From a bacterium (GTDB lineage: Bacteria; Patescibacteriota; Microgenomatia; UBA1400; UBA12108), in NCBI GenBank assembly GCA_021788365.1, contig JAJYKS010000002.1:96521-160520 (forward strand): a DNA stretch of 64,000 nt, written 5' to 3'. Shown here one piece after another: positions 35,592 through 64,000 of this stretch (within the stretch, counting starts at the first letter, position 1; each line of letters opens with the position of its first letter). Under the pieces are notes generated by a model, which was not told where the DNA came from, did no database searches, and worked only from the letters and a program-made list of their open reading frames with translations. Both the position numbers and the translations under genes were made by a program.

Positions 35592-35592
35592 C

Positions 35593-37260: not shown

Positions 37261-37306
37261 ATGCTTGTATTTTCGTATCTAAACTTCTACAATTCGTAGT
37301 AGAGAT

Positions 37307-38663: not shown

Positions 38664-38718
38664 CATAGAAGGATACTGTTGACAGTCAGACATTATATCT
38701 ACTACACTGTGTAGTAAT

Positions 38719-40277: not shown

Positions 40278-40339
40278 ACCAGGAGGACTTATGATGATGA
40301 TCGACGTGACATATTAAAAATTATTAAGGAGGTGAAAAT

Positions 40340-40732: not shown

Positions 40733-40782
40733 CATCTTTATGGGGGAATATCCGGAACTAATGATATCCTCACGATTTCTTC

Positions 40783-41469: not shown

Positions 41470-41481
41470 ACACAGGAGTTT

Positions 41482-41970: not shown

Positions 41971-42008
41971 TTTGCCAACGTACTCAAAGAGGCTCATAAT
42001 GAAATGAT

Positions 42009-44243: not shown

Positions 44244-44252
44244 TGATGGTAT

Positions 44253-44732: not shown

Positions 44733-45325
44733 AGTTGCTTAAAATATCATTGCTCCTGCTAAGCTTTATTGCGCTCTTTTTTGGACACAGTCCGTTAGTC
44801 TACGCACAAGTGATGATGGGGCGATTTACTTCTCCTAATCCTTCAGAGCCTTCTTCTATATCTTCAACAGTAAAAGATGAGGCAGATGGAAAAGTCATAT
44901 ATGAGCTACTACAGTCCAAACAAAAATCATGCAAAGATCTCTCTGATGATGACTTTGATGTCTTAGGTGACTACTTTATGAGTCAGCGGGTAGGGAATAC
45001 CCAAACGCATGACTCAATGAATACCATGATGGGAAACATGATGGGCGAAGACGGCGAGAAACAGATGCACATTTCACTGGGTAAACGCTTGAGCGGCTGT
45101 ATTGCGGATGCACCTCTTCCAGCTCAAGGCACAAACTTTTTGCCAATGATGGGACTTGGCGGAATGATGAACGGTGGCATAAACAACTGGGGTGATCGGA
45201 GTTCTATGATGGGTTTTGGTTCATCTGGTTCACTCTTAGAATCTGTCATATTAATTCTGGTTGTCATCTTCCTTGTTTTGGGAATTATCTATTTCTGGAA
45301 AGAAATCAATCGAAAAAAGAAGTAG
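44729..45325 (+). CDS. Met-rich secreted protein with a C-terminal TM anchor (putative Cu-binding)
   Basis: 198 aa with a signal peptide, repeated Met motifs (MMGNMMGEDGE, MMGLGGMMNGG, MMGFG) and a C-terminal hydrophobic helix. Confidence 0.45.
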   Translation: MKLLKISLLLLSFIALFFGHSPLVYAQVMMGRFTSPNPSEPSSISSTVKDEADGKVIYELLQSKQKSCKDLSDDDFDVLGDYFMSQRVGNTQTHDSMNTMMGNMMGEDGEKQMHISLGKRLSGCIADAPLPAQGTNFLPMMGLGGMMNGGINNWGDRSSMMGFGSSGSLLESVILILVVIFLVLGIIYFWKEINRKKK

Positions 45326-45367
45326 TGTGCCTTATTTCATGAAGTCGCAATATCGTACAATATAGAC

Positions 45368-47263: not shown

Positions 47264-47289
47264 TCTTCATAAAATCTTAATATCTGTTT

Positions 47290-49113
47290 TTGTATGCTTT
47301 GATAATGAAAACACAAAAAGTTCATATCAAAGGCATGCACTGTCGGTCGTGCGAAATCCTCATTGAGGATGAATTAAAACAAATTTCCGGGGTTAAAGGT
47401 GTCAACGTAAACCATCAAACAGGAATTGCAGACATAGAATGCGAGTGTGAACTGAACAGTGATGAGGTAAAGGTAGCTATAGAAAAAGCGGGTTATACTA
47501 TTGGTGAGGACGGTAAAATTCATTTTTTCTCACGCAATCACCGTGATTATATTGATGTCGGCATCGCCTTCTTTATTGCCACAGCATTATTTTTAATAGC
47601 TAAATCTCTGGGACTTTTTGACCTTAGTAAATCTATCTCAGGGAGTTATTCAAGTCTCCCGATCGTTTTCCTCGTTGGCTTAACTGCAGGGGTATCAACA
47701 TGTATGGCACTAGTTGGTGGATTGGTCCTCGGAGCTTCAGCACGTTTTTCAGCGCAATTCCCCAATGCAACCGGCATGGAAAAATTCAAACCACACCTGT
47801 TTTTTAATCTTGGCAGAATCGCTTCATATACTATTCTCGGGGGAGTTATTGGACTTGCCGGATCATTCATTCAGTTATCGACCTCCGTACTAGGTCTATT
47901 AACAGTAGCTGTTGGACTCGTCATGATGCTACTCGGAGGCCAACTCATCGACATCTTTCCAGTCCTCAAAAAGGTCTCATTCACCTTGCCAAAAGGAATA
48001 TCAAGAGCACTGGGTATTCAGGAGAAAACTCAGCTTGAGTACAGCAATAAAAATGCTGCCATCATGGGTGCATCGACATTTTTTCTTCCCTGTGGTTTCA
48101 CTCAGGCAATGCAACTGTTTGCCATGAGCACCGGAAGTCCAGTACAGGGAGCCTTAACTATGGGTGTTTTTGCCTTGGGCACAGCACCTGGCCTACTCGG
48201 TGTTGGCGGGTTATCGGCAGCTGTGAAAGGTAACTCTGCAAAGTTATTTTTCAAAACAGCCGGTGTTGTCGTTATTATGCTGGCGTTCTTTAATGTCTCA
48301 AACGGCCTTAACTTACTTGGTGTTCCTCAAGTGCTCGGAGCGATTACGGCAAATACAAGTGCTCCAAATTCTAGCTACGATCCGAATGTCACCATCGTAA
48401 ATGGTGTTCAGGTAGTTCGAATGACACAGGATTCTTCCGGATATTCACCAAATAAGTTTACGATCAAAAATAATGTTCCAGTCAAATGGATTGTAACATC
48501 AAAAGATGTCTTTACCTGCGCCAGCAGTATTGTGTCTCAACAACTTGATATTCGCAAGGGATTGGCATTGGGTGAAAATATATTTGAATTTACTCCAACT
48601 CAAACAGGTACTATTCGTTTTTCATGCTCAATGGGTATGTATAACGGATCATTCATAGTGGTTGATGATGCGGGTGCAACAAACTTCACACCGCTGCAGG
48701 AAAAAGCACCAATCGTACAAAACCAACCTGTTTCCGGTGCCGGTGCTTCATGTAGCGCTAACGGTGGAGGATGTGGATGCGGCGGAGGAACGAGAAAGCA
48801 GGTAACTACTTCCGCAGGAGAGACAAATACGCAAGGAACTGTTCAAATCTTGAAGGCAACCTATTCTTCTTTGAGCGATATAAAGCCAAATACTTTTACT
48901 GTTAAAGCGAATCAACCAGTACGATTTGAAATTGACGCCACTGATGATGGTCAGGGGTGTATGGGGAGCGTGACTATTCCGAGGCTTACCAATAAAGTTG
49001 AAGTATTCTCCAAAGGTCAAAAGACCGTCTTTGAATTTACCCCTACGAGTACTGGTTCATTTCCTATCACCTGCGCAATGGGAATTCCGAGGGGACAAAT
49101 ACAAGTTAATTAA
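47290..49113 (+). CDS. Fusion protein: HMA domain, then a DsbD_2/TauE-like multi-TM domain, then two C-terminal cupredoxin-like repeats
   Basis: 607 aa. N-terminus is GMHCRSCEILIED. The TM region carries FLPCGFTQA. Two C-terminal ~100-aa repeats each end in a C-x-MG motif (FSCSMGMYNG and ITCAMGIPRG). A Gly/Cys linker (CSANGGGCGCGGG) joins them. Confidence 0.55.
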   Translation: MYALIMKTQKVHIKGMHCRSCEILIEDELKQISGVKGVNVNHQTGIADIECECELNSDEVKVAIEKAGYTIGEDGKIHFFSRNHRDYIDVGIAFFIATALFLIAKSLGLFDLSKSISGSYSSLPIVFLVGLTAGVSTCMALVGGLVLGASARFSAQFPNATGMEKFKPHLFFNLGRIASYTILGGVIGLAGSFIQLSTSVLGLLTVAVGLVMMLLGGQLIDIFPVLKKVSFTLPKGISRALGIQEKTQLEYSNKNAAIMGASTFFLPCGFTQAMQLFAMSTGSPVQGALTMGVFALGTAPGLLGVGGLSAAVKGNSAKLFFKTAGVVVIMLAFFNVSNGLNLLGVPQVLGAITANTSAPNSSYDPNVTIVNGVQVVRMTQDSSGYSPNKFTIKNNVPVKWIVTSKDVFTCASSIVSQQLDIRKGLALGENIFEFTPTQTGTIRFSCSMGMYNGSFIVVDDAGATNFTPLQEKAPIVQNQPVSGAGASCSANGGGCGCGGGTRKQVTTSAGETNTQGTVQILKATYSSLSDIKPNTFTVKANQPVRFEIDATDDGQGCMGSVTIPRLTNKVEVFSKGQKTVFEFTPTSTGSFPITCAMGIPRGQIQVN

Positions 49114-49123
49114 AGGAGGATTT

Positions 49124-49327
49124 ATGAATAAACAAACAATCACATTATCAGGCCTAACCTGCGCAGCCTGCAAAAAAATTACCGAAAAAAGAATTGGCGG
49201 ACTGGATGGTGTTACAAAAGTTGAGACGACGGTTGAAACAGGTTTGGTTGCAATCGAAGCCAATAGGGAAATTTCTGCCCAAGAAATTATTACTGTATTA
49301 AAAGACACACCTTATAAAATTATTTAA
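49124..49327 (+). CDS. copZ: Copper chaperone CopZ (single HMA domain)
   Basis: 67 aa. [21 protein letters not shown] carries the GMxCxxC motif. An RBS (aaaggagga) precedes the ATG at 49124. Confidence 0.8.
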
Positions 49328-49337
49328 CAAAAAAACT

Positions 49338-52300
49338 ATGAACAGAACAATCGACTTAGATATTAAAGGCATGCACTGCCAATCATGCGAAATGCTGATT
49401 AAAGACGAACTTACGGCTCTTCCAGGTATTAAAGAAGTGAGTGTTGACCACAAGGCTGGTAAAGCCACAATTATTACAACCAACGGTCAGGTAACAGAGC
49501 AAACAATTATAGATGCTGTCAAAAGTGCTGGCTACCAAAGCCAGATTGTCCGAAAAGATAATCCTACCAATAGCCATTCGCTGATGACAAAAGAGCTCTT
49601 TGAACAACAAGTAAAACCACTTTTTGTGCTTCCTCCGGAGATAGAGATTGACGGAAAAGTTGGTCAAGATGAAGAGGGTCAATGGACCATTAAAGGAATA
49701 TTACGTTTCGGATCGGCACAAAAGTCCCCGTCTACACAGACAGTGACCTCCGACAGTATTATCTCAGCAGGCTCAGCAACAGGTAAAACAGAGCGCGCGA
49801 GTCTCGTCATTTCAGGCATGCATTGCTCCTCTTGTGCTGCAATTATTGAACGTCAATTAAAAAAAGTCCCAGGTGTTTCTGAAGCCAAAGTTAATTTCGC
49901 TTCAGAAAAAGCTTCAATTCTTTACGACACTGCGTCAGCCAAAGCTGACGATCTTATAAAAGCAGTAGAAAAAGCAGGATACAAAGGAATGCTTGCAAGC
50001 TCTGAAGACTCTCAAGCTCAAACCAAACGTCAACTATCGGAAATTAAAGGGCAATGGAAAAAATTTCTATTCAGCCTTGTTCTCTCATCACCGATGATTT
50101 ACTTCATGTTCTTAGATTTCTTTAATTTCTTACCGGGAGGAAAGACGTTACTTCCCTATATTGGAATTATTTCCTTCATCTTAGCAACGCCTGTACAGTT
50201 TATTAGCGGCGCAAGTTTCTATAAAGGCATGATATCAGCACTCAAGATGCGGACGTTTAATATGGATAGTCTGATTGCTATTGGGACATCAGTTGCCTAT
50301 TTCTACAGTGTCGCCAACTTTTTTTCCTTTTATAGCGCAACTGGTTCTCTGATTGGATTAAACGGCGCTAAAATACCAGAATTGTATTTCGAAACCGCCG
50401 CGTTCCTTATAACTTTCGTTATCTTGGGTAAATATCTTGAAGCAAAAGCCAAAGGCAGAACCGGCGAAGCTATCAAAAAACTCATGGGTCTACAGGCAAA
50501 AACCGCCAGAGTTATCAGAAACGGGGAAACTCTGGATATCCCGACGGACCAAGTGGTGAAAAACGATATCATTGTGGTGCGTCCAGGCGAAAAAGTACCA
50601 GTCGATGGCGTCATAATCAAGGGGGCATCATCTATTGATGAGTCCATGATCACCGGCGAAAGTATGCCGTGCGAAAAACATGTTGACGATATGGTAATTG
50701 GTGGCACAATCAATAAAGTCGGCAGCTTTGAGTTCATGGCAACGAGAATTGGCTCGGAAACGACTCTTTCGCAAATCATCCGCCTTGTGGAAGACGCACA
50801 AGGATCGAAGGCGCCTATTCAGGCAGTTGCCGATCGTATTTCAGCGTTCTTCGTTCCTGGAGTCATTACCATTGCGGCACTCACATTTGTCGTCTGGTAC
50901 TTCTTCTTGGGAGCACCACTCTCATTTGCGCTTATGGCCTTTACGGCCGTAATCGTCATTGCGTGTCCCTGTGCCCTTGGATTGGCTACACCGACCGCCA
51001 TTATGGTCGGCACAGGTGTCGGAGCCGAACATGGAATTTTAGTCAAAGGCGGAGAACCACTGGAGAGTGCCAGCAAAATCAATACCATCGTTTTTGATAA
51101 AACCGGTACGATTACCAAGGGCAAACCGGAAGTCACCGATGTTGAGGATGTAGGTTCCATGGACGAGGAAGAAGTGCTCACTATTTCAGCAAGTTTGGAG
51201 AAGCAGTCGGAACATCCACTTGCCGAGGCCATCTATTCCTACGCACAGGAAGAGAGAGTTGTTCTCAGTGATGTTGATAAGTTTGCAGCAATACCTGGAC
51301 ATGGAGTCAAAGGCACGATCGGTAAAACCGAGTATTATTTTGGCAACCGTAAGCTCATAACAGAAACCCTCAGTCTGGAAGTCGGGAAATTCGAACGCAA
51401 ACTAACCCGGATGGAAGAGCAGGGAAAGACCGCTATGATTTTGGCAACCAAAAAAGAAATCTTGGGGCTCATTGGGGTAGCTGATACGGTTAAGGAAACC
51501 TCTCGTGAGGCCGTAGAGATGCTTACCAAGATGGGTATCGAGGTTTGGATGATCACCGGCGACAATACCCGCACCGCCAAAGCTATAGCCGCTCAAGTCG
51601 GAATAACCAACGTTCTTGCTGAGGTCTTACCTCAGGACAAAGCCAATGAGGTGAAAAAACTTCAGGATGCTGGCAAGAAAGTAGCCATGGTTGGCGATGG
51701 TATCAACGACGCTCCTGCCCTAGCACAGGCTGATCTTGGTATTGCCATGGGGTCAGGCACTGATGTAGCCATGGAAGCAGGCGGAATTGTCATTATAAAG
51801 AACGATCTGCGAGATGTCGTACACGCTCTGGAACTATCAAAAACGACAGTGCAAAAAATACAACAGAATATGTTTTTTGCATTATTTTACAACGTGATTG
51901 GCATCCCAATTGCAGCACGGATATTCTCATTCGTCGGATTAGTACTCAAACCAGAGCTCGCTGGTCTTGCCATGGCGTTAAGCTCTGTATCTGTGGTCGG
52001 TAATTCGTTATTGCTGCGCAAATATAAGCCAGGCAAAAAGAACTATCTTTCCATGTTTGCTCCGGCAATCATGATGATTGCGTTTACCGTTCTATTTATC
52101 GAATTTGCCCGGTTTAGCTCAACTATGGCAGCACCAGCTAAGATGGATATTAAAGAAAAAACAAGCCAAGTGCTGATTAATAAAAATGTGATCATCGCTA
52201 AAACTTCTGAAGGCGTGGAAAAGAAGTTCTATATGGTCGATGCCAAGGCTTCAAAAGACCTAGCTAATAAACTTCCAATAGACGGTTTTAATATCGTCTA

Positions 52301-52511
52301 TATCGGTGGAAAAAAATATCTTCCGGTATATATTGGCTATGATGAGGCGCAAGTCATGATAAAAGAAAAACTCTTTACTAAAGAAGGTGACACGATTTCG
52401 GACTTCTTTGGTAATGACGTAATTGTGTCCGGTATTTTAGCCAAGACAAATACCAGTCTAGATAATTATCATTTTGTTAAAGATGGATTTAAGATCGCTT
52501 CAGCAAAATAG
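49338..52511 (+). CDS. copA: Copper-translocating P1B-type ATPase with two HMA domains and a ~200-aa C-terminal extension
   Basis: 1057 aa. HMA1 is [13 protein letters not shown]2 is [12 protein letters not shown]6 is [19 protein letters not shown] and GDGINDAP are present. After the last canonical TM comes an extra helix and a soluble domain (aa ~860-1057). Confidence 0.9.
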
Positions 52512-52529
52512 AGTTTGTGAGAACAACTC

Positions 52530-52656
52530 GATAGCTCGTTTCGGCAGTTACTGCAAATAACTGTGTCAGAACGAGCTATCTTGTTGACTTTGCCTCCGGT
52601 CTGTATCATAATCCGCTCAAGTTCAAAAGAGCTGCCCCTCCGATAGGGGCTTTTTT
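52530..52656 (+). promoter_or_regulatory. Control region between copA and the T4SS operon: strong nested hairpin, sigma70-like promoter, intrinsic terminator-like hairpin
   Basis: 11-bp inverted repeat GATAGCTCGTT (52530-52540) and AACGAGCTATC (52570-52580) with nested CAGTTA/TAACTG. TTGACT (52584-52589), 17 bp, CATAAT (52607-52612). GCCCCT-CCGAT-AGGGGC plus T6 (52634-52656). Confidence 0.4.
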
Positions 52657-52711
52657 GTAGCTAAAAGCCTGCCGTCTATTAACAAATTATTTATTTGTAA
52701 GGAGGTGGGTT

Positions 52712-53047
52712 ATGAATAAAAAATTAATCACTATATCTTCACTAGCCATCATGGCGCTAGTATTTGCATCTCCAGCATACGCAGCAGCAGGTGACGTCAC
52801 CAACGTTGAAACATTCATCAAGAGCATCATTCTCATTCTCGTTAAAATTGCTGGACTTGTCGCAGCCGGATTCTTTGTCTGGGGAGGGTTTGGATATATC
52901 ACCAGTTCCGGAAATCCTGAAATGCTTGATCGTTCCAAGAAAACAATTTTGTACTCTGCAATCGGGCTTGCGGTTGTTCTTGGTGCGTTTGTTTTAACAA
53001 ATATCGTATCCGACTTGGCTACCGGTGCATTTGGTGCCACGCCGTAA
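52712..53047 (+). CDS. VirB2/TrbC-like T4SS pilin candidate
   Basis: 111 aa with a signal peptide ending AYAAAG and two hydrophobic helices (IILILVKIAGLVAAGFFVWGG, ILYSAIGLAVVLGAFVL). An RBS (aggaggtg) is present. It is the first gene of the T4SS cluster. Confidence 0.45.
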   Translation: MNKKLITISSLAIMALVFASPAYAAAGDVTNVETFIKSIILILVKIAGLVAAGFFVWGGFGYITSSGNPEMLDRSKKTILYSAIGLAVVLGAFVLTNIVSDLATGAFGATP

Positions 53048-53074
53048 ATACAATTATGCACGAAAAAATACTTT

Positions 53075-54352
53075 ATGCTGAAACTGATGCTCTTGGCCGG
53101 TATCATACTTAGCTCGTTATTATTTCCTCACTCAGTTCTGGCCGCTTCTTCAATTCCTGAAATTACTTCATACACTTCGGATACACTCACCATTATCACT
53201 CTGATTGCCTCTGCGTCTGCAGTATTCTTTTTACTGCGTGGTGGGTATCTTTATATCACTTCAACCGGCAAACCGGAGGTTCTAGAAGAAGCTAAGAAAA
53301 CAATTCGTAATGCGCTACTTGGCCTTGTTCTTGTTATCGCGGCACACGCCATCGTTTCCACTCTTCAAGGTGCGCTTGTTGGCAATACAAATACAGGTAC
53401 AATATCGAATCTTCCGTTAGCCCAGATTGAAAGTGTCAAACCAAATGAGGGATTAACTCAAGTACTGATTGATGCCGTCAATGGATTTATCCAAAATATC
53501 GTGGAAAGCTCTACAAAGCCTGTGGTGGACGGAATTATGACCATGCTTACCACGACACCGGAATTACTAACAAATGGCACGATTGTTAAATTTTGGCTCA
53601 TTATGCTAGGTATTACTGATACACTTTTTGTTCTGGTTGTCGCTTTTTTGGGACTTCAGTTTATGAGTACCTCCACTTTTGGATTTGAGGAGATTGAATT
53701 CAAGCATCTGCTTCCCAGAATTGGCTTAGCCTTCCTGGGGACGAATATATCTTTGTTTCTCGCTGATTATGCCGTAAAGACTTGTAACGCTCTGGTGAGT
53801 GGCGTCATTTCAGCAACAGGTGGTCTTAATCATGCATGGATTACAAACGCTATCACACTGCAAAACATCACCACTGGAACTGCACCATTAATTACTTTGA
53901 TATTTTTACTTCTCTTCTTGATAGTCGCAATTGTTCTACTACTCATGTATATCAGTCGGCTAATCGTTATTGCACTTGGAGCTGTCCTTTCACCTTTTAT
54001 TTTTCTTCTCTGGACACTCCCAAAAACTGCTGACTTTGCCGAAATGGCAATTAAGAGCTATTTAGTCTCCGTATTTATGATCTTTATCCATGTCGTAACA
54101 ATTCAATTGGCAGGGTCGTTTCTGGCGCTTCCGGAACAAACGAATAATTCACTTATCTCAGTGGCTGTTGCAATTGGACTTCTATTTACCTTACTTAAAA
54201 TTCCGAGCTTTCTCATGCAACTTATTCTTTTCTCACGAAGTGTGGGAACGGTCAAAAGCATGGGCAGTCAGATTATTAACGTCATGAGTACAGATTCAAC
54301 ACATAAGGGAACGGTCGGAGCTAAGACACCGAGGAAGTCGATCAATATATGA
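53075..54352 (+). CDS. VirB6/TrbL-like polytopic T4SS membrane protein with an N-terminal pilin-like module
   Basis: 425 aa with at least 6 TM segments. The N-terminal ~100 aa resemble the preceding pilin (LRGGYLYITSTGKPEVLEEAKKTIRNALLGLVLV versus GGFGYITSSGNPEMLDRSKKTILYSAIGLAVV). Confidence 0.5.
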   Translation: MLKLMLLAGIILSSLLFPHSVLAASSIPEITSYTSDTLTIITLIASASAVFFLLRGGYLYITSTGKPEVLEEAKKTIRNALLGLVLVIAAHAIVSTLQGALVGNTNTGTISNLPLAQIESVKPNEGLTQVLIDAVNGFIQNIVESSTKPVVDGIMTMLTTTPELLTNGTIVKFWLIMLGITDTLFVLVVAFLGLQFMSTSTFGFEEIEFKHLLPRIGLAFLGTNISLFLADYAVKTCNALVSGVISATGGLNHAWITNAITLQNITTGTAPLITLIFLLLFLIVAIVLLLMYISRLIVIALGAVLSPFIFLLWTLPKTADFAEMAIKSYLVSVFMIFIHVVTIQLAGSFLALPEQTNNSLISVAVAIGLLFTLLKIPSFLMQLILFSRSVGTVKSMGSQIINVMSTDSTHKGTVGAKTPRKSINI

Positions 54353-54822
54353 GAACAACAATTATTCCGGCACAAATCACTACTGTCGAAGACAAAATTG
54401 CAGGATCACTGAATTTTGTTCAGATAATGCTCATGATGACACCCGTGCTCTGGGGGACCTTGGTGTATGCAATCTTTAGTCCGGTCATGAAGATATCACC
54501 ATACAAAATTAGCTTAGTTCTGTTCGTAACCGCCATATCACTCGTCTTGGCGCTCAGGATAAAAGATAAAATAATTGCTGAGTGGATTGGTATACTTCTT
54601 CGGTATAAATTACGGCCTACATATTATGTATTTAACAAAAATGACGTAAGCGAACGCATAATTGATCTGCCGTTTGAACCAACATCCCATCATAAGACTT
54701 CAGTAGCAAAAGCCGGAAAAAAACAAACAACCGAATTATCGATAGAAGAGCTAATACGTCTTGAACAGGCGATGAACTCAAAACGACTCGCTGTCTCATT
54801 TCATTATGGAAAAAGAGGATAA
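54349..54822 (+). CDS. VirB3/PrgI-like small T4SS membrane protein
   Basis: 157 aa with two TM segments immediately upstream of VirB4, as in Gram-positive T4SS. Confidence 0.4.
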   Translation: MRTTIIPAQITTVEDKIAGSLNFVQIMLMMTPVLWGTLVYAIFSPVMKISPYKISLVLFVTAISLVLALRIKDKIIAEWIGILLRYKLRPTYYVFNKNDVSERIIDLPFEPTSHHKTSVAKAGKKQTTELSIEELIRLEQAMNSKRLAVSFHYGKRG

Positions 54823-54824
54823 CT

Positions 54825-55439
54825 ATGGCGCTATTTAAGCCAAAAACACAATCATCACGTCAGCAGATCCAGATCAAAAAGGTCTTTGATAATGTATTGG
54901 TGTTACCAAACCAAGAATACCGGATGATTCTTGAAACGTCCTCCATTAACTTTGAGCTCAAGAGTGAAGAAGAGCAGGATGTGATGATCGACAGTTTTCA
55001 AAATTTCCTCAATGCGCTACCGTGCCAAATTCAAATACTCGTTCGGGTCAGGGAAATCGATATCGATAAATACGCAGAAGATGTAGCGAGATCAAAGGAT
55101 AAAGAAAAAGATCCCATCTACCGGAAACAAATAGAGGGATACAGCGCATTTGTCAAAAAGCTGGTATCCGGCAACAGTATCCTTTCCCGACGGTTCTATA
55201 TTATTTTGCCATATCACCATCCAGATCGTCACGAAGATTGGAAAGTGATCAAAGAACACCTCAATCTAAATCGCGATATTGTCGTCAAAGGCTTGGAACG
55301 GATGCAGATGAAGGCAAAGGTTCTCTCGAGCCTGGAAATTATCAATCTGTTCTACAGTTTTTATAATCCTGAGTCGGTGAAAACTCAGGCAATTACCAAA
55401 GAGGCATTATCAGCACTATTCACTCATAATTATGTTTAA
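54825..55439 (+). CDS. VirB4/TraC-like ATPase, N-terminal domain (separate ORF)
   Basis: 204 aa. It ends 8 nt inside the next ORF. Together the two ORFs give ~799 aa, the usual VirB4 size. Confidence 0.55.
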   Translation: MALFKPKTQSSRQQIQIKKVFDNVLVLPNQEYRMILETSSINFELKSEEEQDVMIDSFQNFLNALPCQIQILVRVREIDIDKYAEDVARSKDKEKDPIYRKQIEGYSAFVKKLVSGNSILSRRFYIILPYHHPDRHEDWKVIKEHLNLNRDIVVKGLERMQMKAKVLSSLEIINLFYSFYNPESVKTQAITKEALSALFTHNYV

Positions 55440-57219
55440 TCTAACCAAAATCAAACCTATTCGGGATTGGCAGAGGCGCCAAAAGAAAAAACGCCTCACT
55501 CATCAGGCGATCAATATCACGTTTGGTGAACAAGACCAACTTGAGCTTATGTCCTATGCCGGAATGAAAGAAGAATCCAGTTATTTGCAGATCAATGATA
55601 CGTTCGTGAGAACTCTGTTTGTGTCAGGTTACCCATATGTTGCTTCAACCGGTTGGCTATCGATGCTCGTAAACTTCAACCACAATATCGATATCAACTA
55701 CCATATAGAGCAAATTGACCCACTCATTGCCTTGCCTAAATTGAATCGGAAGATTACAGAACTTGAATCTACTAAACGCACCATGCTCAAAGAGGGTCGG
55801 GTGATTGGGAGTGAAATTACTGATCCGCTCGAATCGGCCATGGAGCTTAAAGATAAAATTCAACGAGGTATGGAAAAGCTGTTTCAGGTCTCAATCTATA
55901 TGACTGTTACTGCCGATAGTCTTGTTGAGCTTAATAAAGTCACAAAACTACTGGAAACGGTCATGCAGACACGACTTTTCTACATTAAGCCAGCGACGTT
56001 TCAACAAGTCGAAGCACTTCAATCCATATTGCCCAGAGGTGAAAACAAATTAGCTCAGAAACGAAATCTGGATAGCTCAAGCGCCGCCTTGACCTTCCCG
56101 TTTGTCTCATCTGAACTCGTCCAAGAATCAGGCATCTTATATGGTATCAACAAATCAAATAACTCACTGGTCATTATCGACCGGTATAGTTTAAACAACG
56201 CCAACTCGATAATTTTTGCCCAGAGTGGATCCGGAAAAAGCTTTACCGCTAAAGTCGAGATACTCCGGCACCTCATGCAAGGCACAAAAGTCATTGTGAT
56301 CGACCCAGAACGCGAATATAAACAACTGGCCAAAAGTGTGGGTGGTACATATATCAAGCTATCAAGTACATCCAAGGAAAAGATTAATCCGTTTGATTAC
56401 TCCCAGAATTCGGTGACGGGTGAAAATAGCCTCACTGAACACATCCAAGACCTGACAGAACTCATTTCTCTTATGGTTGGCTCTCTGACCTCCGAAGAGC
56501 GGGCAACAGTCGACAGAGCCCTCCTACAAACGTATAAGAACGTAGGGTTAAGTAAGAGAAAGAACGGGAAAAAGCCAGCAAAAATTGTATATCCACTCCT
56601 CAAAGACTTTTACAACGAGCTTAAGGCATTAAAACATAAAGACCTTTGCAATCGGCTTGAACGGTTTGTGAAAGGGTCACTTGGTGGAGTATTCGATTCC
56701 CAAACCAACATTGAGATGAATAATCGCCTCGTCGTGTTTGATATTAAAGATCTCAGCGAGTCCTTACGTCAAATCATGATGATGGTGGTTGCTAACTTCG
56801 TACATAGCGAAGTCAAACAGAGTCCACAAAAGCGCATGTTAGTTATCGATGAGGGTTGGATACTCCTACAAGAGCCGGAGAGCGCCAGATTTATCTCAGG
56901 CTTAGTACGACGCGCCAGAAAATACTATCTGGGAGTCACCATTATCACGCAACAAGCCAACGATTTTCTTTCACAGGAATACGGCAAAGCAGTAGCCAGC
57001 CAATCCTCCCTGCGCATATTAATGAGACAAGATACAACCACCATCAAAAAAGTTGCCGAAGAGTTTCACCTCTCAGCCTTTGAACAGCACTATTTATTAA
57101 CGTGCGAGCGGGGTGAGGCATTAATTATTGCCGATCAGAATCATGTTGCTGTTAAAGTAGTGGCATCTGAGGAAGAACACCCGCTTCTTACAACTGATCC
57201 TCGGGAAATATACATCTGA
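55432..57219 (+). CDS. VirB4/TraC/CagE-like T4SS ATPase (ATPase domain)
   Basis: 595 aa with Walker A FAQSGSGKSFTAK, Walker B LVIDEGWILL and a VirB4 C-terminal pattern. Confidence 0.85.
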   Translation: MFNLTKIKPIRDWQRRQKKKRLTHQAINITFGEQDQLELMSYAGMKEESSYLQINDTFVRTLFVSGYPYVASTGWLSMLVNFNHNIDINYHIEQIDPLIALPKLNRKITELESTKRTMLKEGRVIGSEITDPLESAMELKDKIQRGMEKLFQVSIYMTVTADSLVELNKVTKLLETVMQTRLFYIKPATFQQVEALQSILPRGENKLAQKRNLDSSSAALTFPFVSSELVQESGILYGINKSNNSLVIIDRYSLNNANSIIFAQSGSGKSFTAKVEILRHLMQGTKVIVIDPEREYKQLAKSVGGTYIKLSSTSKEKINPFDYSQNSVTGENSLTEHIQDLTELISLMVGSLTSEERATVDRALLQTYKNVGLSKRKNGKKPAKIVYPLLKDFYNELKALKHKDLCNRLERFVKGSLGGVFDSQTNIEMNNRLVVFDIKDLSESLRQIMMMVVANFVHSEVKQSPQKRMLVIDEGWILLQEPESARFISGLVRRARKYYLGVTIITQQANDFLSQEYGKAVASQSSLRILMRQDTTTIKKVAEEFHLSAFEQHYLLTCERGEALIIADQNHVAVKVVASEEEHPLLTTDPREIYI

Positions 57220-57220
57220 C

Positions 57221-57829
57221 ATGAATCCAAAACTGTTCCTTACTCTCTGGTCATTTCGCAAGGAACTGAAATTTGTATTCCTAGCATTTCTTGCGATCCT
57301 CATGTTTCCAGTCATCGGAGTAATCCTTCTTACTCAGGTTGGTATTAACATCATCTCTGATAAGCTGGTTGAAAGTAATCCGGTTACTCAATCAATTGAA
57401 ATCAAGGACCCGACATCCGGGAATGTGGTTAAATCAATCACTCCACAGGTTGTTTGGCCTGTACACGGGGTTATAACGCTAGAATTCGGACAGTCGAGTG
57501 GGTATCAGGTGTTCCATACAGGTATTGATATAGCCAATCCCAATGGACAGATCGGAGATCCAATTAACCCAGCCATGAACGGTGTCGTTACGTACGCCGG
57601 AGAAATATTCTGGGGGTATGGCAAACATATTATTATTGATAATGGGAACAATATTACAACCGTCTACGCGCATCTCGATAAGATTTATGTCTACCCAGGT
57701 CAGAAAGTTACTATCACAGATATGATTGGAAGAGAAGGACAAACCGGTTGGGCTACAGGACCTCATCTACACTTTGAAACAAGAATATATGGGATACCAG
57801 TCAATCCGAGAGTATTTTTAGGCCAGTAA
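57221..57829 (+). CDS. M23/LytM-family peptidoglycan endopeptidase (T4SS cell-wall hydrolase)
   Basis: 202 aa with an N-terminal TM segment and the motifs HTGIDIA, GYGKHIIIDNGNNITTVYAHL and GPHLHFE. Confidence 0.85.
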   Translation: MNPKLFLTLWSFRKELKFVFLAFLAILMFPVIGVILLTQVGINIISDKLVESNPVTQSIEIKDPTSGNVVKSITPQVVWPVHGVITLEFGQSSGYQVFHTGIDIANPNGQIGDPINPAMNGVVTYAGEIFWGYGKHIIIDNGNNITTVYAHLDKIYVYPGQKVTITDMIGREGQTGWATGPHLHFETRIYGIPVNPRVFLGQ

Positions 57830-57862
57830 GTAACATTCATTACTGTAGCTTGATATAATTAT

Positions 57863-58759
57863 ATGTATCTGAATAATATGGCAACAACGATCAATCAAGC
57901 ATTTACACAATTTAAATCTAATCTAAATATTACTGGATTACAGGCGCAAACAGTTTCAACGCGTCAACAAAACGTGCGAAAGGTTGTCGAGGAAGGATTA
58001 ACCGTGTTGGATTCGTTCCTTACAGGATCTTACTCTAGAGGCACAATGATTTGTCCACTTTCTGAAGCTGATATAGATATTTTCATGGTACTCGATAATT
58101 CATATTACTATCATTACCATGGTAAAAATGGTGGTCAGGCAGGTTTATTGGACTTTGTGAAACGGACTTTACGAAAAACGTATACAAAAACACCGGACAT
58201 AAGCAGGAACGGCCAAGCAGTTACAATTAGATTTGATGATTTTATGGTTGATGTAATCCCAGCATTTAATCGGCAAGGTGGAGGGTATTTGATTCCGAAT
58301 TCTATAACTCAATCTTGGCTCTCAACAAATCCAAAAAAGCATGTTGAGTTAATCAGCGCATCAAATTCAGCTCACAATGGAGATTTCGTTCCACTTGTTA
58401 AAATGATCAAATGCTGGAACCGCAATATACAGTCTCACTTTCATTCTTTTCATCTTGAAGTACTTGCCCTCTCAATTTTTTCGAATATAGAAATATCGGA
58501 CTTACCGTCTGGGGTGCGATACTTTTTTGACAAAGCAAGAGTATTGGTTACAAAGCAAAATTCCGATCCGGCTGGGTATGACGGAGACGTAGGTAGCTAT
58601 ATAAATAACCAAGATAAGATCGATGAAGCCGTTTCAAGACTCCAGACAGCATATGATCGAGCAGTCAAAGCTGAATACTGCTCAACTCTAGGACAAACAA
58701 GCAATGCCATAGACGAATGGAGAAAAATATTTGGCAATTACTTCCCTACATATGGCTAA
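57863..58759 (+). CDS. SMODS-type (CD-NTase-like) nucleotidyltransferase
   Basis: 298 aa with a Pol-beta NTase core GSYSRGTMICPLSEADIDIFMVLD (GS-x9-S/DxD) and a helical C-terminal half. A 2TM SLATT-like gene follows. Family assignment is by motif and context. Confidence 0.5.
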   Translation: MYLNNMATTINQAFTQFKSNLNITGLQAQTVSTRQQNVRKVVEEGLTVLDSFLTGSYSRGTMICPLSEADIDIFMVLDNSYYYHYHGKNGGQAGLLDFVKRTLRKTYTKTPDISRNGQAVTIRFDDFMVDVIPAFNRQGGGYLIPNSITQSWLSTNPKKHVELISASNSAHNGDFVPLVKMIKCWNRNIQSHFHSFHLEVLALSIFSNIEISDLPSGVRYFFDKARVLVTKQNSDPAGYDGDVGSYINNQDKIDEAVSRLQTAYDRAVKAEYCSTLGQTSNAIDEWRKIFGNYFPTYG

Positions 58760-59321
58760 TACTACGAGAACAACCAAAACTACCGCTAGTGAAAAACCTA
58801 TTTCTCAGGCGAAGGACGAAATTATTAAGGAGGCAAAAAGAATTGAAGAAGCCTGCCTTTTTTCAGCAAAGCGTCATTTTATTTCTGCTAATTTCTGGGG
58901 AGGTCTGAATTACTGGTTAGGTATACCAGCTGTCCTTTTATCTGGTGTTGTCGGAGTATCAGTATTCTCCGACTTTGATAAAACTCATACAATTTCAAAA
59001 TTGTCCTCAATTTTTGTAGCAGGCCTAACAAGCTTAATGACTTTTCTCAATCCCAATCAAAAATCATCGACACACCAAGACTCTGGTAATAGCTACGATG
59101 CTTTACTAAATAAGGTCAGAATATTTTGGTCAATAGACTGTTGGGAAGAGAAGTCGACAGAAGTGCTAACTGGAAGATTAAAGGGTATTTCGGAAGAAAA
59201 GGACAGATTAAATAAAACCAGTCCACAAACTATTGGAATATCGTACTTTCTTGCAAAACGATCAATCGAACGAGGAGAGGCAAGCTATACTGTCGATAAC
59301 CAAGACCTACCAGCCAATTAG
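58731..59321 (+). CDS. SLATT-like two-TM effector protein partnered with the SMODS NTase
   Basis: 196 aa. An N-terminal helix (ACLFSAKRHFISANFWGG) is followed by two closely spaced TM helices (LGIPAVLLSGVVGVSVF and LSSIFVAGLTSLMTFL) and a ~90-aa soluble tail. It overlaps the NTase by 29 nt. Confidence 0.45.
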   Translation: MAITSLHMANTTRTTKTTASEKPISQAKDEIIKEAKRIEEACLFSAKRHFISANFWGGLNYWLGIPAVLLSGVVGVSVFSDFDKTHTISKLSSIFVAGLTSLMTFLNPNQKSSTHQDSGNSYDALLNKVRIFWSIDCWEEKSTEVLTGRLKGISEEKDRLNKTSPQTIGISYFLAKRSIERGEASYTVDNQDLPAN

Positions 59322-59548
59322 TTTGGTAAATCTTCTTCAGACTTCAAATCTCGAGCTTTCATGCTCATAAACGTATCAGAGGTTTTAAGAAGTTCGGCAA
59401 ACTCAATAGCATTTTCATTATGGTCAGGATCAAGAACATCGAGTATTTTCTGCACATCATCCATAACGTTGATATTCATATTATGATCATGCGCATATTG
59501 AAGCGCATCTATCACGAGTTCAGACTTTTGTGAAACTGGATCTTTCAT
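59318..59548 (-). CDS. Small acidic hypothetical protein downstream of the PLD nuclease
   Basis: 76 aa, D/E-rich, no motif recognised. It lies 11 nt after the nuclease gene on the same strand. Confidence 0.3.
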   Translation of the reverse strand: MKDPVSQKSELVIDALQYAHDHNMNINVMDDVQKILDVLDPDHNENAIEFAELLKTSDTFMSMKARDLKSEEDLPN

Positions 59549-59559
59549 AATTTTCTCCT

Positions 59560-60072
59560 TTAGTATAACAAATGTTTTTTAATATCACTAACTTGATCGT
59601 ATTTCAAAAATTTAAACAAGACTTCTGCCTTTTGCTTGTTTTCGTCACGCTCCATAAACTCACGAGTATTTCGGTGAGAGAGGATATTGAGACTGCCTTT
59701 CCATACTATTGTCCTATCAATCATTGCCAACTTCCTATGGTGTGACTTACAGAGAAGTACCTGAATGCCTAATTTCTCAAAATATTGTATTCCTGCCTCA
59801 GATTGCTCGACCATGAACGAATCATGCTCTTCGGGATGTCTCGTGATGATAAATACCGCCACCCCTCGCGCAATCAACCGTTCAAAAGCAGCTTTCAGAC
59901 TACGCATCTTCGGAACCGTGATATATGGACTTTCAATAATCACTTCTTGCTTCGCTTGGTTCAAATCCTGCTCGAATTGGTAGTAAAAGCTATTTTCATC
60001 TGTTAAAATATAGCTTGCAGTCTGGGAATCAAGAGATTGCGTGTCCATTGGGGACTTAGTGAACCAGTTCAT
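59560..60072 (-). CDS. PLD/HKD-family nuclease (Nuc/BfiI-like, single HKD)
   Basis: 170 aa with an HxKx4D...GSxN motif (SHHRKLAMIDRTIVWKGSLNI). No signal peptide. Confidence 0.7.
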   Translation of the reverse strand: MNWFTKSPMDTQSLDSQTASYILTDENSFYYQFEQDLNQAKQEVIIESPYITVPKMRSLKAAFERLIARGVAVFIITRHPEEHDSFMVEQSEAGIQYFEKLGIQVLLCKSHHRKLAMIDRTIVWKGSLNILSHRNTREFMERDENKQKAEVLFKFLKYDQVSDIKKHLLY

Positions 60073-60145
60073 TGTTTTCCCTCCTTTTTAAAATGAGCGA
60101 TGGAAATGATGAGACTAGCTTTCTCTTTGGGATCGATAGAGGAGG

Positions 60146-61699
60146 TTAGGTAGGTTCTAACATCGTCCCAGATGGTGCACTAGAAAAGAGAGCATTAGTA
60201 TCAATGGTACAAATTGATTGATACAACGGGCTAATCTGGCGGTTCAAGGTGCCATTTTGGTTCCAAGCCAACCCTGACGGGAATATTGAACCAAGGAGTA
60301 CTTTGATCTGGCTAAGGCTTGATCTTTTATACGTTTCTCCTAAATCCGCAAGCAGCGTTCGTATAAAAGTAGTAACGTCTTCAATATTATATTTATCAAT
60401 CGTGGCATCGTCTTTGACGATATGTGCTTTGGTCATTCGGTCCTCAATAACAGCATTTTGCTCTTTATACACCTCGTCAGAATACACACCAGCCAGGTTT
60501 TTCTCGACCAATGTTTTCCGAAGTGCTTTTAGTGTGGCAATCTCTTGATCTGCCTCGGTTTTTATCTTTTGCAGTCTTGATAGCCGTTGGTGATATGTCC
60601 GATACAGGAATGTAATAAAAAGGTTTAGACACTCCTTTTTTGGTGTTACCTGTTTGAGTGTTTGAACAACGGAATTTTCAAGTATTTCCGATTTAGCTGC
60701 TACGCCCTTACAAACACCACAGCACCGGTAATACGCATATTTGGCATGTCTACCTTTACTCCAGCCGCCAGTCATTCCCATTCCGCAAACTCCGCATCGG
60801 ACTATCCGGCGGAGAGGAAAATCTGGGTTGGCATGATTTCTTTTGGCAAGTGCCACTTTATTTGGATTTCGACCATCTAGAATTGCTTGTACGCGATAAA
60901 ACTGCTCATCAGTAATCATGGGCACATGTTGCGCTTTTACTTCCTCAAGGTACGTCTTAGATGTTAAAATACCCATGTAAAACTTATTCCTGAATAACAC
61001 ATCAACGCGTTGAGCACGGATAATAAATTCCCGTTTTCCTCGTCGCTCTTTCATGCCCCACACGTTCATAAGGTCTGCCATTTCCTGTAAACTCTTTGTT
61101 CCCGTCGCCATGAGGTCCCAAGATTTTTTCATTAAATCCCAAGTTTTGTCATCTTTAACTGCATAGCCTGCTTGAACGGCATATCCCAGAGGAACTTGGC
61201 CCGTAACGATCATACCGGAAAGAAATCTCGCTTTAAGACCGTTTCGTGACCGTTCGCTGCGGATATCATTATCAAGTTGAGCAAATCCGGCAAGAATCGT
61301 CTCAACGAGTTTTTCAGTAGGGCTATCACCAGTCGGCTCAGTTGCAGAGAGTATAGTTACTCCGTTCTCTGTTAGCTTTTTTCGAATTGCCAAGTAGTCA
61401 GCAGTTATACGGGAAATGCGGTCCAGACGATACACAAATACCGCTTGTACCGCGTGTTTATGCTTCCGGCAATATTCAAGAAGCTGGATAAGTATCGGTC
61501 GTCCGGTGATGCTTTTGGCGGACCTGCCTTCTTCACGAAACATCTCGATTACTTGATATCCGCGTTTTTCTGCCTCTTTCCTGCAAATTTCTTCTTGGGT
61601 ACCCAGTGAAAAATTATCAACTTGTTCCTCGGTAGAAACTCGAAGATAAAGTACCGCCTTTTTCCCATCGGCATAAACGGCATTATTTAATTTCATCAT
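60146..61699 (-). CDS. Large serine recombinase, second copy
   Basis: 517 aa with an N-terminal resolvase domain (AVLYLRVSTEEQ; catalytic Ser), a recombinase domain and a Cys-rich zinc ribbon (CGVCGMGMTGG...YRCCGVCKG). Confidence 0.85.
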   Translation of the reverse strand: MMKLNNAVYADGKKAVLYLRVSTEEQVDNFSLGTQEEICRKEAEKRGYQVIEMFREEGRSAKSITGRPILIQLLEYCRKHKHAVQAVFVYRLDRISRITADYLAIRKKLTENGVTILSATEPTGDSPTEKLVETILAGFAQLDNDIRSERSRNGLKARFLSGMIVTGQVPLGYAVQAGYAVKDDKTWDLMKKSWDLMATGTKSLQEMADLMNVWGMKERRGKREFIIRAQRVDVLFRNKFYMGILTSKTYLEEVKAQHVPMITDEQFYRVQAILDGRNPNKVALAKRNHANPDFPLRRIVRCGVCGMGMTGGWSKGRHAKYAYYRCCGVCKGVAAKSEILENSVVQTLKQVTPKKECLNLFITFLYRTYHQRLSRLQKIKTEADQEIATLKALRKTLVEKNLAGVYSDEVYKEQNAVIEDRMTKAHIVKDDATIDKYNIEDVTTFIRTLLADLGETYKRSSLSQIKVLLGSIFPSGLAWNQNGTLNRQISPLYQSICTIDTNALFSSAPSGTMLEPT

Positions 61700-61998
61700 T
61701 TGCCTCCTTTCTCATGCAGTAATTCCTGCAGAGTTAAACCTTTAAATATGTGTCGCTCATATTCATCAAGCCAGGTTTCAGTTAAAAACTCTACCTCCAT
61801 GACGACGGTCTCAAGCTCTGTTGCGGACAATTCATATCCGAGAAGTCCTAGTGCGTCTTTTGCTTGCTTGAGGCGTTTCTCTTCATATTTTTGTTCGGGA
61901 AATAATTTTTCAAGGGATTGCTCCGTACTTTGTGGAATAGTAACCAACCCTAGTTCTTTTTGCTCTAATCCCATGGCAGTTTGCATACTCATATCCAA
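61696..61998 (-). CDS. Small protein upstream of, and overlapping, recombinase 2; homolog of 8660..8875
   Basis: 100 aa with a 4-nt overlap onto the recombinase start. It shares YELSATELETVVMEVEFL with YDITLTDEEATELATHFL in the module-1 small protein. Confidence 0.4.
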   Translation of the reverse strand: MDMSMQTAMGLEQKELGLVTIPQSTEQSLEKLFPEQKYEEKRLKQAKDALGLLGYELSATELETVVMEVEFLTETWLDEYERHIFKGLTLQELLHEKGGK

Positions 61999-62015
61999 TC
62001 TAGAATCTTACTAAC

Positions 62016-62072
62016 CTATCTATATATAGATAGTGTATATCGAAATATAGATAGCTGTCAAGTATCTAGATA
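62016..62072. promoter_or_regulatory. Palindrome cluster in the divergent region between recombinase module 2 and the T4CP paralog
   Basis: 18-bp perfect palindrome CTATCTATATATAGATAG (62016-62033). Direct repeat ATATAGATAG (62045-62054). Palindrome TATCTAGATA (62063-62072). Confidence 0.4.
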
Positions 62073-62168
62073 TCCCAGCATTTTTGCACAAATTCCATCT
62101 CTGGAGTATCATTCTAACAACATCAAATACGTTGAGTTGACGATGCTAACTGCCCGTAAAGGGTAGTT

Positions 62169-64000
62169 ATGTTTAAAAATAACGTTATTCTGATAATTCT
62201 TCAAAAAGAGCTTTTTAAGGTAAGCGACTATTTACATCCATATTTCATTGTTTGGCTCCATGTGCTTACTGACTATATCCCGTTTATATTTGTAGGTGTT
62301 GTCACGTTGATCGTTTTCTGGGTCGCCTATCTGGCGATCAAGTTACGTCTAATTTGGAACGAATCGGGTAAACCAGTCGCATTGTTTGAAGTTTCACCGC
62401 CCACAAACACAGAACAAAGTTCCTTTACTACCACTCAGCTATTCACCTCAGTCCACGGACTCCTGAAACAGCGTTCGTGGCTACTTAGACTCTTTGACGT
62501 GACAAAATCCTACGCGTTTGAAATTGTATCTACAAAAGACAAAGGTATTCGATATATCTTCCGTATTGCAACCGAAGACGAACAAATCATCAAAAAGACT
62601 CTGATTGCATACCTCCCAGGTATTCAAGTTAAAGAAATTGACGACTATCTCGATCCAAACATTACTCGCGGTCATGTTCTTGATTTTCGTTTAACCCATC
62701 ATTTTGCGTTTCCCCTAAAAAAACAAGAAAAACTCGAGGAATACGATCCCATCTCCTACATTACCGGGACTATGACCAAATTAGAGGCTAGTGAGCTGGT
62801 TGCGGTACAAACCGTGGTATCTCCCGTGAGTCGATCTATATCGCGAAGCGTTGGACACTTACGATCACTCTTCCTGGGAAAGAAAGACATACTCACGGAA
62901 TTAGCCTTCAGCAATCAAGCAGGATCATTCTTGATGTTTGTTATTCGTTTTTGTCTGCAACTTTTATTATTTCCTGTTGGGCTTATGATTTTCGTCTTTA
63001 CTGGTGGTCGTGAAGGCCCGATGCTACCGATTATGTCCCTTAAAGCTCAATTACCGGATAGTACGTATCGCGATATTGTAGAGACTCAAATCAAACAAAA
63101 AATTGACCAACAGCTTTTTACAGTTTCGTTGAGATTTCTGACCGTTGCCGATTCGTATACCAATAGATCAAGAATCGAGAAGGGGTTCGTTGCAGCACTG
63201 TCGCCATTCACTAATGCGGGATATCAATCGCTACGTCCAAAAAGATATATAAAAGTAAAGGCAGTAAACAACGAACTGTTGTGGCTGTATCAACATCGAA
63301 TACTCGGATTCATTGATAATTTAGTTTTATCTACGTCTGAACTATCTGACCTCTATCATTTCCCATATACCAGCACAACAAAAACAGAAAATCTCTCCAA
63401 ATTGCACAGTCGAGAACTTCCTGCTCCGTTATCGCTTAAACAAAAATCTGCGTGTGATCTCTATTTTGCCAAAAATACCTATGGCGGTACTGAAACAAGG
63501 ATTGGTTTGACGCTCGATGAACGAAGACGCCATGTGTATATTTTGGGGGCAACCGGAACCGGAAAATCTACAATGCTTCTGTCAATGATCCAGCAGGATA
63601 TCGAACACAAGAAAGGATTATGTGTTATTGACCCGCACGGTGATTTGATTGAACAGGTGCTATCAATTATTCCTAGAGAGCGGATACCGGATGTCGTGTA
63701 CTTTAACCCAGACGATATCAGCTATCCGATGGGTATTAATTTACTCGAACTGACACCTGGATTATCTTCTGAAGATGCTATCCGCGAAAAGGAGTTCATC
63801 GCTGAAAGTATTATTTCTGTCTTCCACAAAATCTACTCTGACAAGTATTCCGGCCCGAGAATGGAATATATTTTGCGAAACACAATCCACACAGCTTTTA
63901 CTGTTCCTGATGCCACACTATTTACGATCTATAAACTTTTAATAAACACCCCATTTAGAAAATCAGTTGTACGGAATCTAACAGACGAGAACCTCAAGGA
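62169..64000 (+). CDS. Second VirD4/TraG-like coupling protein (paralog of 9360..11951), 5' portion; continues past the window
   Basis: Translation from the ATG at 62169 aligns along its length with the 9360 protein. Examples: TNTEQSSFTTTQLF, FEIVSTKDKGIRY, LYHFPYTSTTKTE, and Walker A YILGATGTGKSTMLLSMIQQDIEHKKGLCVIDPHGD. It is absent from the ORF table because no stop codon occurs inside the window. Confidence 0.7.
   Translation, partial: MFKNNVILIILQKELFKVSDYLHPYFIVWLHVLTDYIPFIFVGVVTLIVFWVAYLAIKLRLIWNESGKPVALFEVSPPTNTEQSSFTTTQLFTSVHGLLKQRSWLLRLFDVTKSYAFEIVSTKDKGIRYIFRIATEDEQIIKKTLIAYLPGIQVKEIDDYLDPNITRGHVLDFRLTHHFAFPLKKQEKLEEYDPISYITGTMTKLEASELVAVQTVVSPVSRSISRSVGHLRSLFLGKKDILTELAFSNQAGSFLMFVIRFCLQLLLFPVGLMIFVFTGGREGPMLPIMSLKAQLPDSTYRDIVETQIKQKIDQQLFTVSLRFLTVADSYTNRSRIEKGFVAALSPFTNAGYQSLRPKRYIKVKAVNNELLWLYQHRILGFIDNLVLSTSELSDLYHFPYTSTTKTENLSKLHSRELPAPLSLKQKSACDLYFAKNTYGGTETRIGLTLDERRRHVYILGATGTGKSTMLLSMIQQDIEHKKGLCVIDPHGDLIEQVLSIIPRERIPDVVYFNPDDISYPMGINLLELTPGLSSEDAIREKEFIAESIISVFHKIYSDKYSGPRMEYILRNTIHTAFTVPDATLFTIYKLLINTPFRKSVVRNLTDENLK

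Follow-up and report, generated by a model that had tools for sequence, protein, structure and literature searches.

Do the two overlapping genes at the far end of a conjugative element in an uncultured bacterium form an antiphage defense system, and does such a system serve the cell or the element that carries it? The question is raised by a 64,000-nucleotide stretch of contig JAJYKS010000002.1 (GenBank assembly GCA_021788365.1), referred to here as the window, which corresponds to about 62.3–126.3 kb of a 130.8-kb ENA metagenome contig from which the gene calls for the surrounding context were taken. A first-pass annotation had proposed that a SMODS-type nucleotidyltransferase and a SLATT-like protein with two transmembrane (TM) helices make up a minimal pair resembling CBASS (an antiphage signaling system based on cyclic oligonucleotides). 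Based on profile searches, structural models and gene-neighborhood comparisons, the locus is very probably a two-gene type I CBASS abortive-infection system, carried as cargo on an integrative conjugative element. The label “CBASS-like” was supported by matches to CBASS families but was an understatement, as the pair falls within the working definition of type I CBASS.

The upstream gene encodes a CD-NTase (cGAS/DncV-like nucleotidyltransferase), the CBASS oligonucleotide cyclase. Pfam SMODS matched its product at 1.3e-27 and 97.5 bits (cut-off 26.5), the PADLOC oligonucleotide-cyclase model PDLC00823 at 2.9e-109 over profile positions 1–285 of 285, and the NCBIfam equivalog CBASS_cyclase_b at 218.7 bits (cut-off 200); approximately 30 further PADLOC CBASS cyclase models matched as well. 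The alternative against which the first-pass annotation had set its proposal, an MNT/AbiEii or aminoglycoside nucleotidyltransferase, was rejected: the score of the generic NTP_transf_2 family, 20.7 bits, did not reach the cut-off, searches of Pfam, PADLOC and NCBIfam matched no AbiEii, MNT or ANT family, and only CD-NTase/SMODS families were significant. Homologs of the cyclase were numerous (n = 2270), and exactly the same protein was called on contigs of both an ENA and a Logan assembly, which are independent data sets.

The cyclase has the active site expected of a Pol-beta nucleotidyltransferase, namely GS followed by [DE]xD and then a third Asp. The open reading frame (ORF) contains GSYSRGTMICPLSEADIDIFMVLD (G55 S56 ... 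D70 I D72 in the numbering of the 298-aa ORF), and the third acidic residue is D130 within FMVDVIPAF. The catalytic core had thus been recognized correctly at first pass, although the spacing is GS-x10-SEADID and not x9. The start of the mechanically predicted ORF was revised: the gene probably begins at the ATG at 57878, giving 293 aa, because more than 100 homologs are 293–294 aa long and begin with MATTI. In this shorter numbering, G50, S51, D65, D67 and D125 were invariant across 37 aligned homologs. A Kyte-Doolittle scan of the cyclase found no hydrophobic stretch.

Structural comparison led to the same family. The top PDB sequence match was CdnD of Pseudomonas aeruginosa (PaCdnD; 6p82, 6p8j, 6p8u), at 5.9e-28 over residues 7 to 295, in an alignment that pairs DIDIF with DIDIF and VDxxPAF with VDxxPAF, and in which D70/D72 fall on the DID of PaCdnD (D62/D64 according to the entry name of 6p8j). 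An AlphaFold2 (AF2) model of the cyclase, built from 37 homologs (predicted local distance difference test score, pLDDT, 88.5), has the bilobed cGAS/DncV-like fold: all of the top 50 Foldseek matches in the PDB were CD-NTases (CdnD, CdnC, CdnB, CdnE, CdnG and DncV), with the highest TM-score, 0.82, to 6p82. The comparison with CD-NTase and cGAS folds that had been suggested as a check therefore favored the original assignment. Among the CD-NTase clades, the sequence appears closest to clade D. PaCdnD, from P. aeruginosa ATCC 27853, is the nearest solved relative and shares the GS...DID...D active site; its identity to the cyclase is, however, only about 28% (Foldseek).

The downstream gene encodes the putative effector. 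An ORF for the 196-aa protein of the first-pass annotation does exist, opening with a TTG, but the true start is likely the ATG at 58752, which gives 189 aa, because the metagenome gene call uses it and the aligned homologs mostly begin there or shortly after. From this ATG the gene overlaps the cyclase stop by 8 nt (ATGGCTAA). The 29-nt overlap reported earlier was a product of the TTG start and was dropped on the evidence of the gene call and the homolog alignment; that two co-directional ORFs overlap holds with either start.

Two tightly spaced TM helices had been noted in this protein, and both hydropathy and structure prediction agree. Kyte-Doolittle windows of 19 residues scoring 1.4 or more were confined to residues 58–83 and 88–106 of the 196-aa ORF. 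The AF2 model (pLDDT 82) is all helical (helices at residues 19–72, 80–99, 101–127, 136–156 and 162–173 of the 189-aa protein): the long first helix ends in TM1 and is followed by a 7-residue loop, TM2 and three more helices. Two close TM helices between helical soluble parts are expected of a SLATT protein. Lys and Arg cluster in the N- and C-terminal parts of the effector and the loop holds just one such residue, a distribution that suggests an N-in/C-in topology with both termini predicted to be cytoplasmic. The most conserved stretch in the homolog alignment lies directly after TM2 (TFLNPN..H...GN.YD.L.N..R.FWSIDCW), and the invariant columns are T97, F98, N100, P101, N102, H108, N113, Y115, R123, F125, I128 and C130.

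The PADLOC CBASS “Effector 2TM” model PDLC00712 matched the effector at 1.3e-61, and NCBIfam NF033632 (SLATT_4) at 116.7 bits (cut-off 55). Many homologs at 50–59% identity carry a precomputed PF18186 match, and some are called “SLATT domain-containing protein” by NCBI. With Pfam SMODS and the NCBIfam models CBASS_cyclase_b and SLATT_4 all above their cut-offs, and with the PADLOC matches to both proteins, the SMODS-SLATT identity given to the pair at first pass was supported. Features of the pair and of its surroundings are collected in Table 1.

Table 1. Coordinates, in window positions, of the cyclase-effector pair, its parts and the surrounding features.
Feature	Position	Strand	Basis or remarks
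CD-NTase (CBASS oligonucleotide cyclase, SMODS domain)	57863..58759	+	298-aa mechanical ORF (six-frame ORF list)
SLATT_4-type 2TM CBASS effector	58752..59321	+	189 aa; PADLOC, NCBIfam, homologs, AF2
Mechanical effector ORF	58731..59321	+	TTG start, 196 aa
TM1 hydrophobic segment	58902..58979	+	residues about 51–76 of 189 aa; Kyte-Doolittle ≥1.4; C-terminal part of AF2 helix 19–72
TM2 hydrophobic segment	58992..59048	+	residues about 81–99; Kyte-Doolittle; AF2 helix 80–99
Promoter-like site GTAACA-18-(TG)TATAAT	57830..57859	+	10/12 matches, extended -10; within 33-bp gap after M23 gene
PLDc_2 and 76-aa protein operon	59318..60072	-	convergent to the pair
First conjugative element	6937..60100		
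Second conjugative element	60146..64000		continues past the window
tRNA-Leu	6972..7056		GC content falls from here on

To determine which genes travel together, relatives of the cyclase were surveyed using one genome per species, which yielded 14 loci with 54–74% cyclase identity from at least 10 phyla. The taxa represented were Daviesbacteria, Acidobacteriota, Atribacteria, Nitrospirota, Hyphomicrobiales, Verrucomicrobiota, Peregrinibacteria, Armatimonadota, Bacteroidota, Negativicutes, Cryosericota, Sphingomonas and Planctomycetota. A membrane effector adjoins the cyclase relative in all 14 loci. In 10 it belongs to the same 2TM family and lies directly downstream (38–58% identity), and in the remaining four the neighboring gene is matched by PADLOC models of CBASS “4TM” effectors (lowest E-value, 2.6e-106). 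A tblastn search of the loci from other phyla with the M23 peptidase, VirB4, phospholipase D (PLD) and 76-aa proteins of the window found no relatives. Since the effector adjoins the cyclase throughout, and the tested neighbors were not found in those loci, the unit is the cyclase plus a membrane effector, and the effectors are exchanged between loci as is typical of CBASS. In the Negativicutes locus (positions 4944–7755 there), two CD-NTase genes that differ from each other lie in tandem ahead of a single 4TM effector; one of the two matches PADLOC PDLC00802 at 3.7e-146 and the other is the relative of the window cyclase.

Assignment to type I requires that Cap2/Cap3 (type II), HORMA/TRIP13 (type III) and Cap9/Cap10 with OGG (type IV) be lacking. 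A PADLOC scan of 45 window ORFs returned, among the matches listed (25 of 42 families), no further CBASS family besides those of the two genes themselves. According to Pfam, PADLOC and gene annotation, the neighbors of the pair are the M23 peptidase, the 76-aa protein, the PLDc_2 protein and a serine recombinase. Types II and III were considered because the nearest solved relative, PaCdnD, is HORMA-dependent, and were rejected, as no HORMA, TRIP13, Cap2 or Cap3 was present among those listed matches or in the Pfam annotation of the neighbors. PaCdnD belongs to a type III system in which HORMA proteins activate the cyclase, a TRIP13-like ATPase regulates it and its signal acts on the nuclease NucC; such partners were not found at the present locus in the neighbor annotation or among the listed PADLOC matches. 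Effector and cyclase are co-oriented and adjacent, and this adjacency is kept in other genomes. As neither Cap2/Cap3, HORMA/TRIP13 nor any further accessory gene was found there, the locus is assigned to type I. The Pfam and PADLOC domain matches also gave no sensor domain fused to the cyclase. The first-pass annotation had likewise seen no sensor or regulatory domain and had for that reason called the mode of activation open; the observation stands, but it is the defining property of type I and nothing peculiar to this locus.

In the same PADLOC scan, two ORFs matched mad8 (3.6e-24), two matched HerA (2e-08) and mad2 was matched at 4.9e-26. Serine recombinases probably account for the matches to mad8 and DUF87 conjugation ATPases for those to HerA, and all three most likely reflect generic domain similarity and not defense systems.

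The promoter-like site that precedes the cyclase gene is a possible promoter of the pair's own. A promoter and terminator scan of the region gave site counts no higher than in shuffled sequence, and no convincing terminator was found in it after the effector gene.

An association of SMODS with SLATT is said to have been predicted by Burroughs et al. in 2015 (Nucleic Acids Res) and to have been subsumed later by work on CBASS; the predicted architecture, a SMODS synthetase beside a SLATT two-TM effector, is identical to the one seen here. Type I operons mostly combine cyclases of clade D, E or F with effectors of 2 or 4 TM helices, and in E. coli one of them, EcCdnF04-SLATT6, gives a restriction of phages of 10,000-fold or more (bioRxiv 10.1101/2023.05.21.541620). 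Both SLATT4 and SLATT6 are among the listed classes of CBASS membrane effectors (PMC12480259). The present pair has in common with EcCdnF04-SLATT6 and EcCdnD12-4TM an overlapping two-gene operon, a small membrane effector and the lack of accessory Cap genes, and likewise the swapping of effectors (2TM versus 4TM) among close cyclase relatives. It differs from EcCdnF04-SLATT6, which has a SLATT_6 effector, in that its effector is of the SLATT_4 type and its host an uncultured Microgenomates-like bacterium of the candidate phyla radiation (CPR). A SLATT 2TM effector is tightly coupled to an enzyme that produces a signal or nucleic acid in two further systems, the reverse transcriptase (RT)-SLATT5 pair of DRT10/UG17 and the TIR-ThsH(SLATT) pair of type VII Thoeris. 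There, however, the partner is a reverse transcriptase or a TIR protein, and here it is a CD-NTase; the PADLOC RT-associated SLATT models matched the effector weakly (4.9e-09) compared with the far stronger match to the CBASS 2TM model given above.

By analogy with its family, the CD-NTase would be kept inactive until phage infection, upon which it would make a cyclic oligonucleotide out of nucleoside triphosphates. A cyclic trinucleotide is a plausible product, since CdnD and CdnC, the closest relatives of known structure, are titled cyclic trinucleotide synthases in the PDB. The signal would bind the effector on its cytoplasmic side, to which the amphipathic helix at the N terminus and the conserved helices that follow TM2 would contribute, and the ligand-bound effector would oligomerize and breach the inner membrane. 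SLATT effectors are believed to form oligomeric assemblies that breach the membrane (bioRxiv 10.64898/2025.12.03.692087). Death of the cell would precede the release of phage progeny, and the pair would thereby protect the host of the element and hence the element too.

Several observations weigh against this reading of the locus as a type I CBASS acting in abortive infection. The nearest solved cyclase, PaCdnD, requires a HORMA partner, and none is present at the locus among the PADLOC matches listed. Of the Pfam families proposed as a check, SMODS matched the cyclase above its cut-off as noted, but SLATT_4 and SLATT_6 (PF18186 and PF18169) scored the effector at 16.2 and 18.7 bits, below the gathering threshold of 27, so that its membership in the family rests on NCBIfam, PADLOC and the homologs. 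A PDB sequence search for a solved homolog of the effector returned only chance matches (E >0.5), and Foldseek with its AF2 model returned no match at E ≤0.001; with no solved structure like it, the ligand site and the pore mechanism are extrapolated. The experimental defense data found in the literature were for SLATT6 operons and not for SLATT4. Finally, the host is an uncultured CPR bacterium.

The flank of the element gives an indication of the host. The first 6–7 kb of the window have a guanine-plus-cytosine (GC) content of 0.46–0.54 and carry uvrB, uvrA, uvrC, a cytidylate kinase gene, tRNA-Arg and tRNA-Leu. The host appears to be a Microgenomates-like CPR/Patescibacteria bacterium because of the identities of its UvrA, which are 73% to a protein of Candidatus Woesebacteria, 72% to one of Collierbacteria and 69% to a “Microgenomates group” protein. 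From tRNA-Leu on, where the conjugative element begins, the GC content falls to about 0.40. In order, the element encodes a large serine recombinase, a helix-turn-helix protein, the coupling protein (DUF8128/DUF87/TraG-D_C), a relaxase of the Replic_Relax family and a DUF2958 protein, then an ars operon, five or more P-type metal ATPases and further cargo, and after these the TrbC/type IV secretion system (T4SS) pilins, the TraC-like protein, the VirB4-like ATPase and the M23 peptidase; a gap of 33 bp separates the peptidase gene from the CBASS pair. The location of the pair right after the T4SS genes of a conjugative island, as first annotated, was thus correct.

Two related conjugative elements were found in tandem beside tRNA-Leu. 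The opening genes of each encode a large serine recombinase, a coupling protein with DUF8128/DUF87, a relaxase (Replic_Relax) and a DUF2958 protein, and the blocks of coupling protein, relaxase and DUF2958 gene are 70–76% identical at the DNA level (e.g. 10512–11870 versus 63339–64697). The recombinase that opens the second element lies beyond a short operon convergent to the CBASS pair. This operon encodes a PLDc_2 HKD protein of 170 aa, with an intact HxKxxxxD motif (HRKLAMID) and without an obvious signal peptide, and, 12 nt beyond its gene, a very acidic 76-aa protein with a net charge of about -10 and no family match. In related elements both genes keep synteny with the CBASS pair, which is not so at CBASS loci from other phyla, and the two might form a nuclease-immunity or an anti-restriction pair. 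On contigs with an 84%-identical cyclase, the same order recurs: pilin, PrgI, TraC-like protein, VirB4, M23 peptidase, one extra ORF, cyclase, 2TM protein, small protein and PLD. As these contigs keep the gene order, the CBASS pair is a stable cargo of this element lineage.

Other features of the element were recorded alongside. Its metal-resistance cargo (14500–52500) is heavy and includes, besides ArsR, ArsD and ArsA, five or more HMA-domain P-type (E1-E2) ATPases, a DsbD_2-cupredoxin protein, an M56 peptidase resembling BlaR1 and a histidine kinase with a HAMP domain. No contigs encoding the protein of the histidine kinase ORF at 35527–36996 were found, probably because its TTG start is wrong. 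An enolase, an MFS transporter and an inorganic pyrophosphatase (24177–27195, minus strand) are unusual cargo for a mobile element. Repeats of 200–600 bp with 74–83% identity occur within and between the elements (17617–18211 with 23235–23823; 13918–14144 with 23949–24157 and, in extended coordinates, 67211–67377). One of these repeats lies near the DUF2958 genes; the repeats may have been left by a third element or by recombination. For a small CPR genome, mobile DNA of more than 55 kb, with a GC content of 0.40, is a large load.

The position of the pair on such an element raises the possibility that it works for the element, in conflict between elements (for instance by killing cells that take up a competitor), in addiction-like stabilization or as a guard against phages that use the pilus, more than in general antiphage immunity. 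The pair holds the same position, after VirB4/M23 and before the convergent acidic protein and PLD, in at least two diverged versions of the element whose cyclases are 84% identical, and two related elements in tandem make competition plausible. Carriage of CBASS by mobile elements is nevertheless ordinary, as on the VSP-1 island of Vibrio cholerae. Furthermore, the occurrence of the same pair in 10 loci of other phyla without the tested element genes (tblastn) marks it as an autonomous two-gene module, and no antitoxin-like partner for post-segregational killing was seen. We consider a role primarily in the service of the element improbable. A wider proposal, in which the CBASS pair, the HKD nuclease and the 76-aa protein form one conserved block at the T4SS operon's end that arbitrates conjugation-specific conflicts (with pilus phages or rival elements), or in which the cyclase acts as a constitutive guard in the manner of Panoptes, would likewise be given little credence.

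Panoptes, whose effector is a 2TM-beta-barrel protein, represents the inverse form of signaling: a nucleotide made constitutively would keep the 2TM effector closed, and depletion of the nucleotide by a phage sponge or nuclease would free it. That no sensor domain or regulator was found (Pfam; PADLOC, among the matches listed) is in keeping with such wiring, as is the recent description of minimal nucleotide-synthase plus 2TM systems that signal inversely (PMC12657230, PMC12657218). In those papers, however, the Panoptes synthase is mCpol (Cas10-palm) and the effector is termed 2TM, neither of them a CD-NTase or a SLATT protein, whereas the scores of both proteins here are those of canonical CBASS families; so far, tested operons of type I CBASS also behave as infection-activated (bioRxiv 10.1101/2023.05.21.541620). 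Inverse signaling is thus judged very improbable at this locus. Hardly any weight is given to the pair being a decaying, non-functional remnant that is passively carried. The promoter-like site does not rise above chance, yet both ORFs are full length compared with more than 100 homologs, the catalytic and motif residues are invariant, the identical cyclase was recovered from two independent data sets and homologs are widespread. The preferred reading therefore remains type I CBASS acting in abortive infection.

This is the commonest CBASS architecture, and one more instance matters little alone; close homologs already bear the names “CBASS oligonucleotide cyclase” or “SLATT domain-containing protein” from the NCBI pipeline. 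Only its CPR host and its place on tandem conjugative elements are unusual, and mildly so. The locus nonetheless documents that a large conjugative element for metal resistance, in a CPR group with tiny genomes, stably carries a signaling system of the abortive-infection type. The SLATT_4 effector, with its invariant motif after TM2 and no solved structure, offers a compact target for learning how SLATT effectors read nucleotide signals. Lastly, cyclases 54–74% identical across at least 10 phyla indicate that the module moves freely between lineages.

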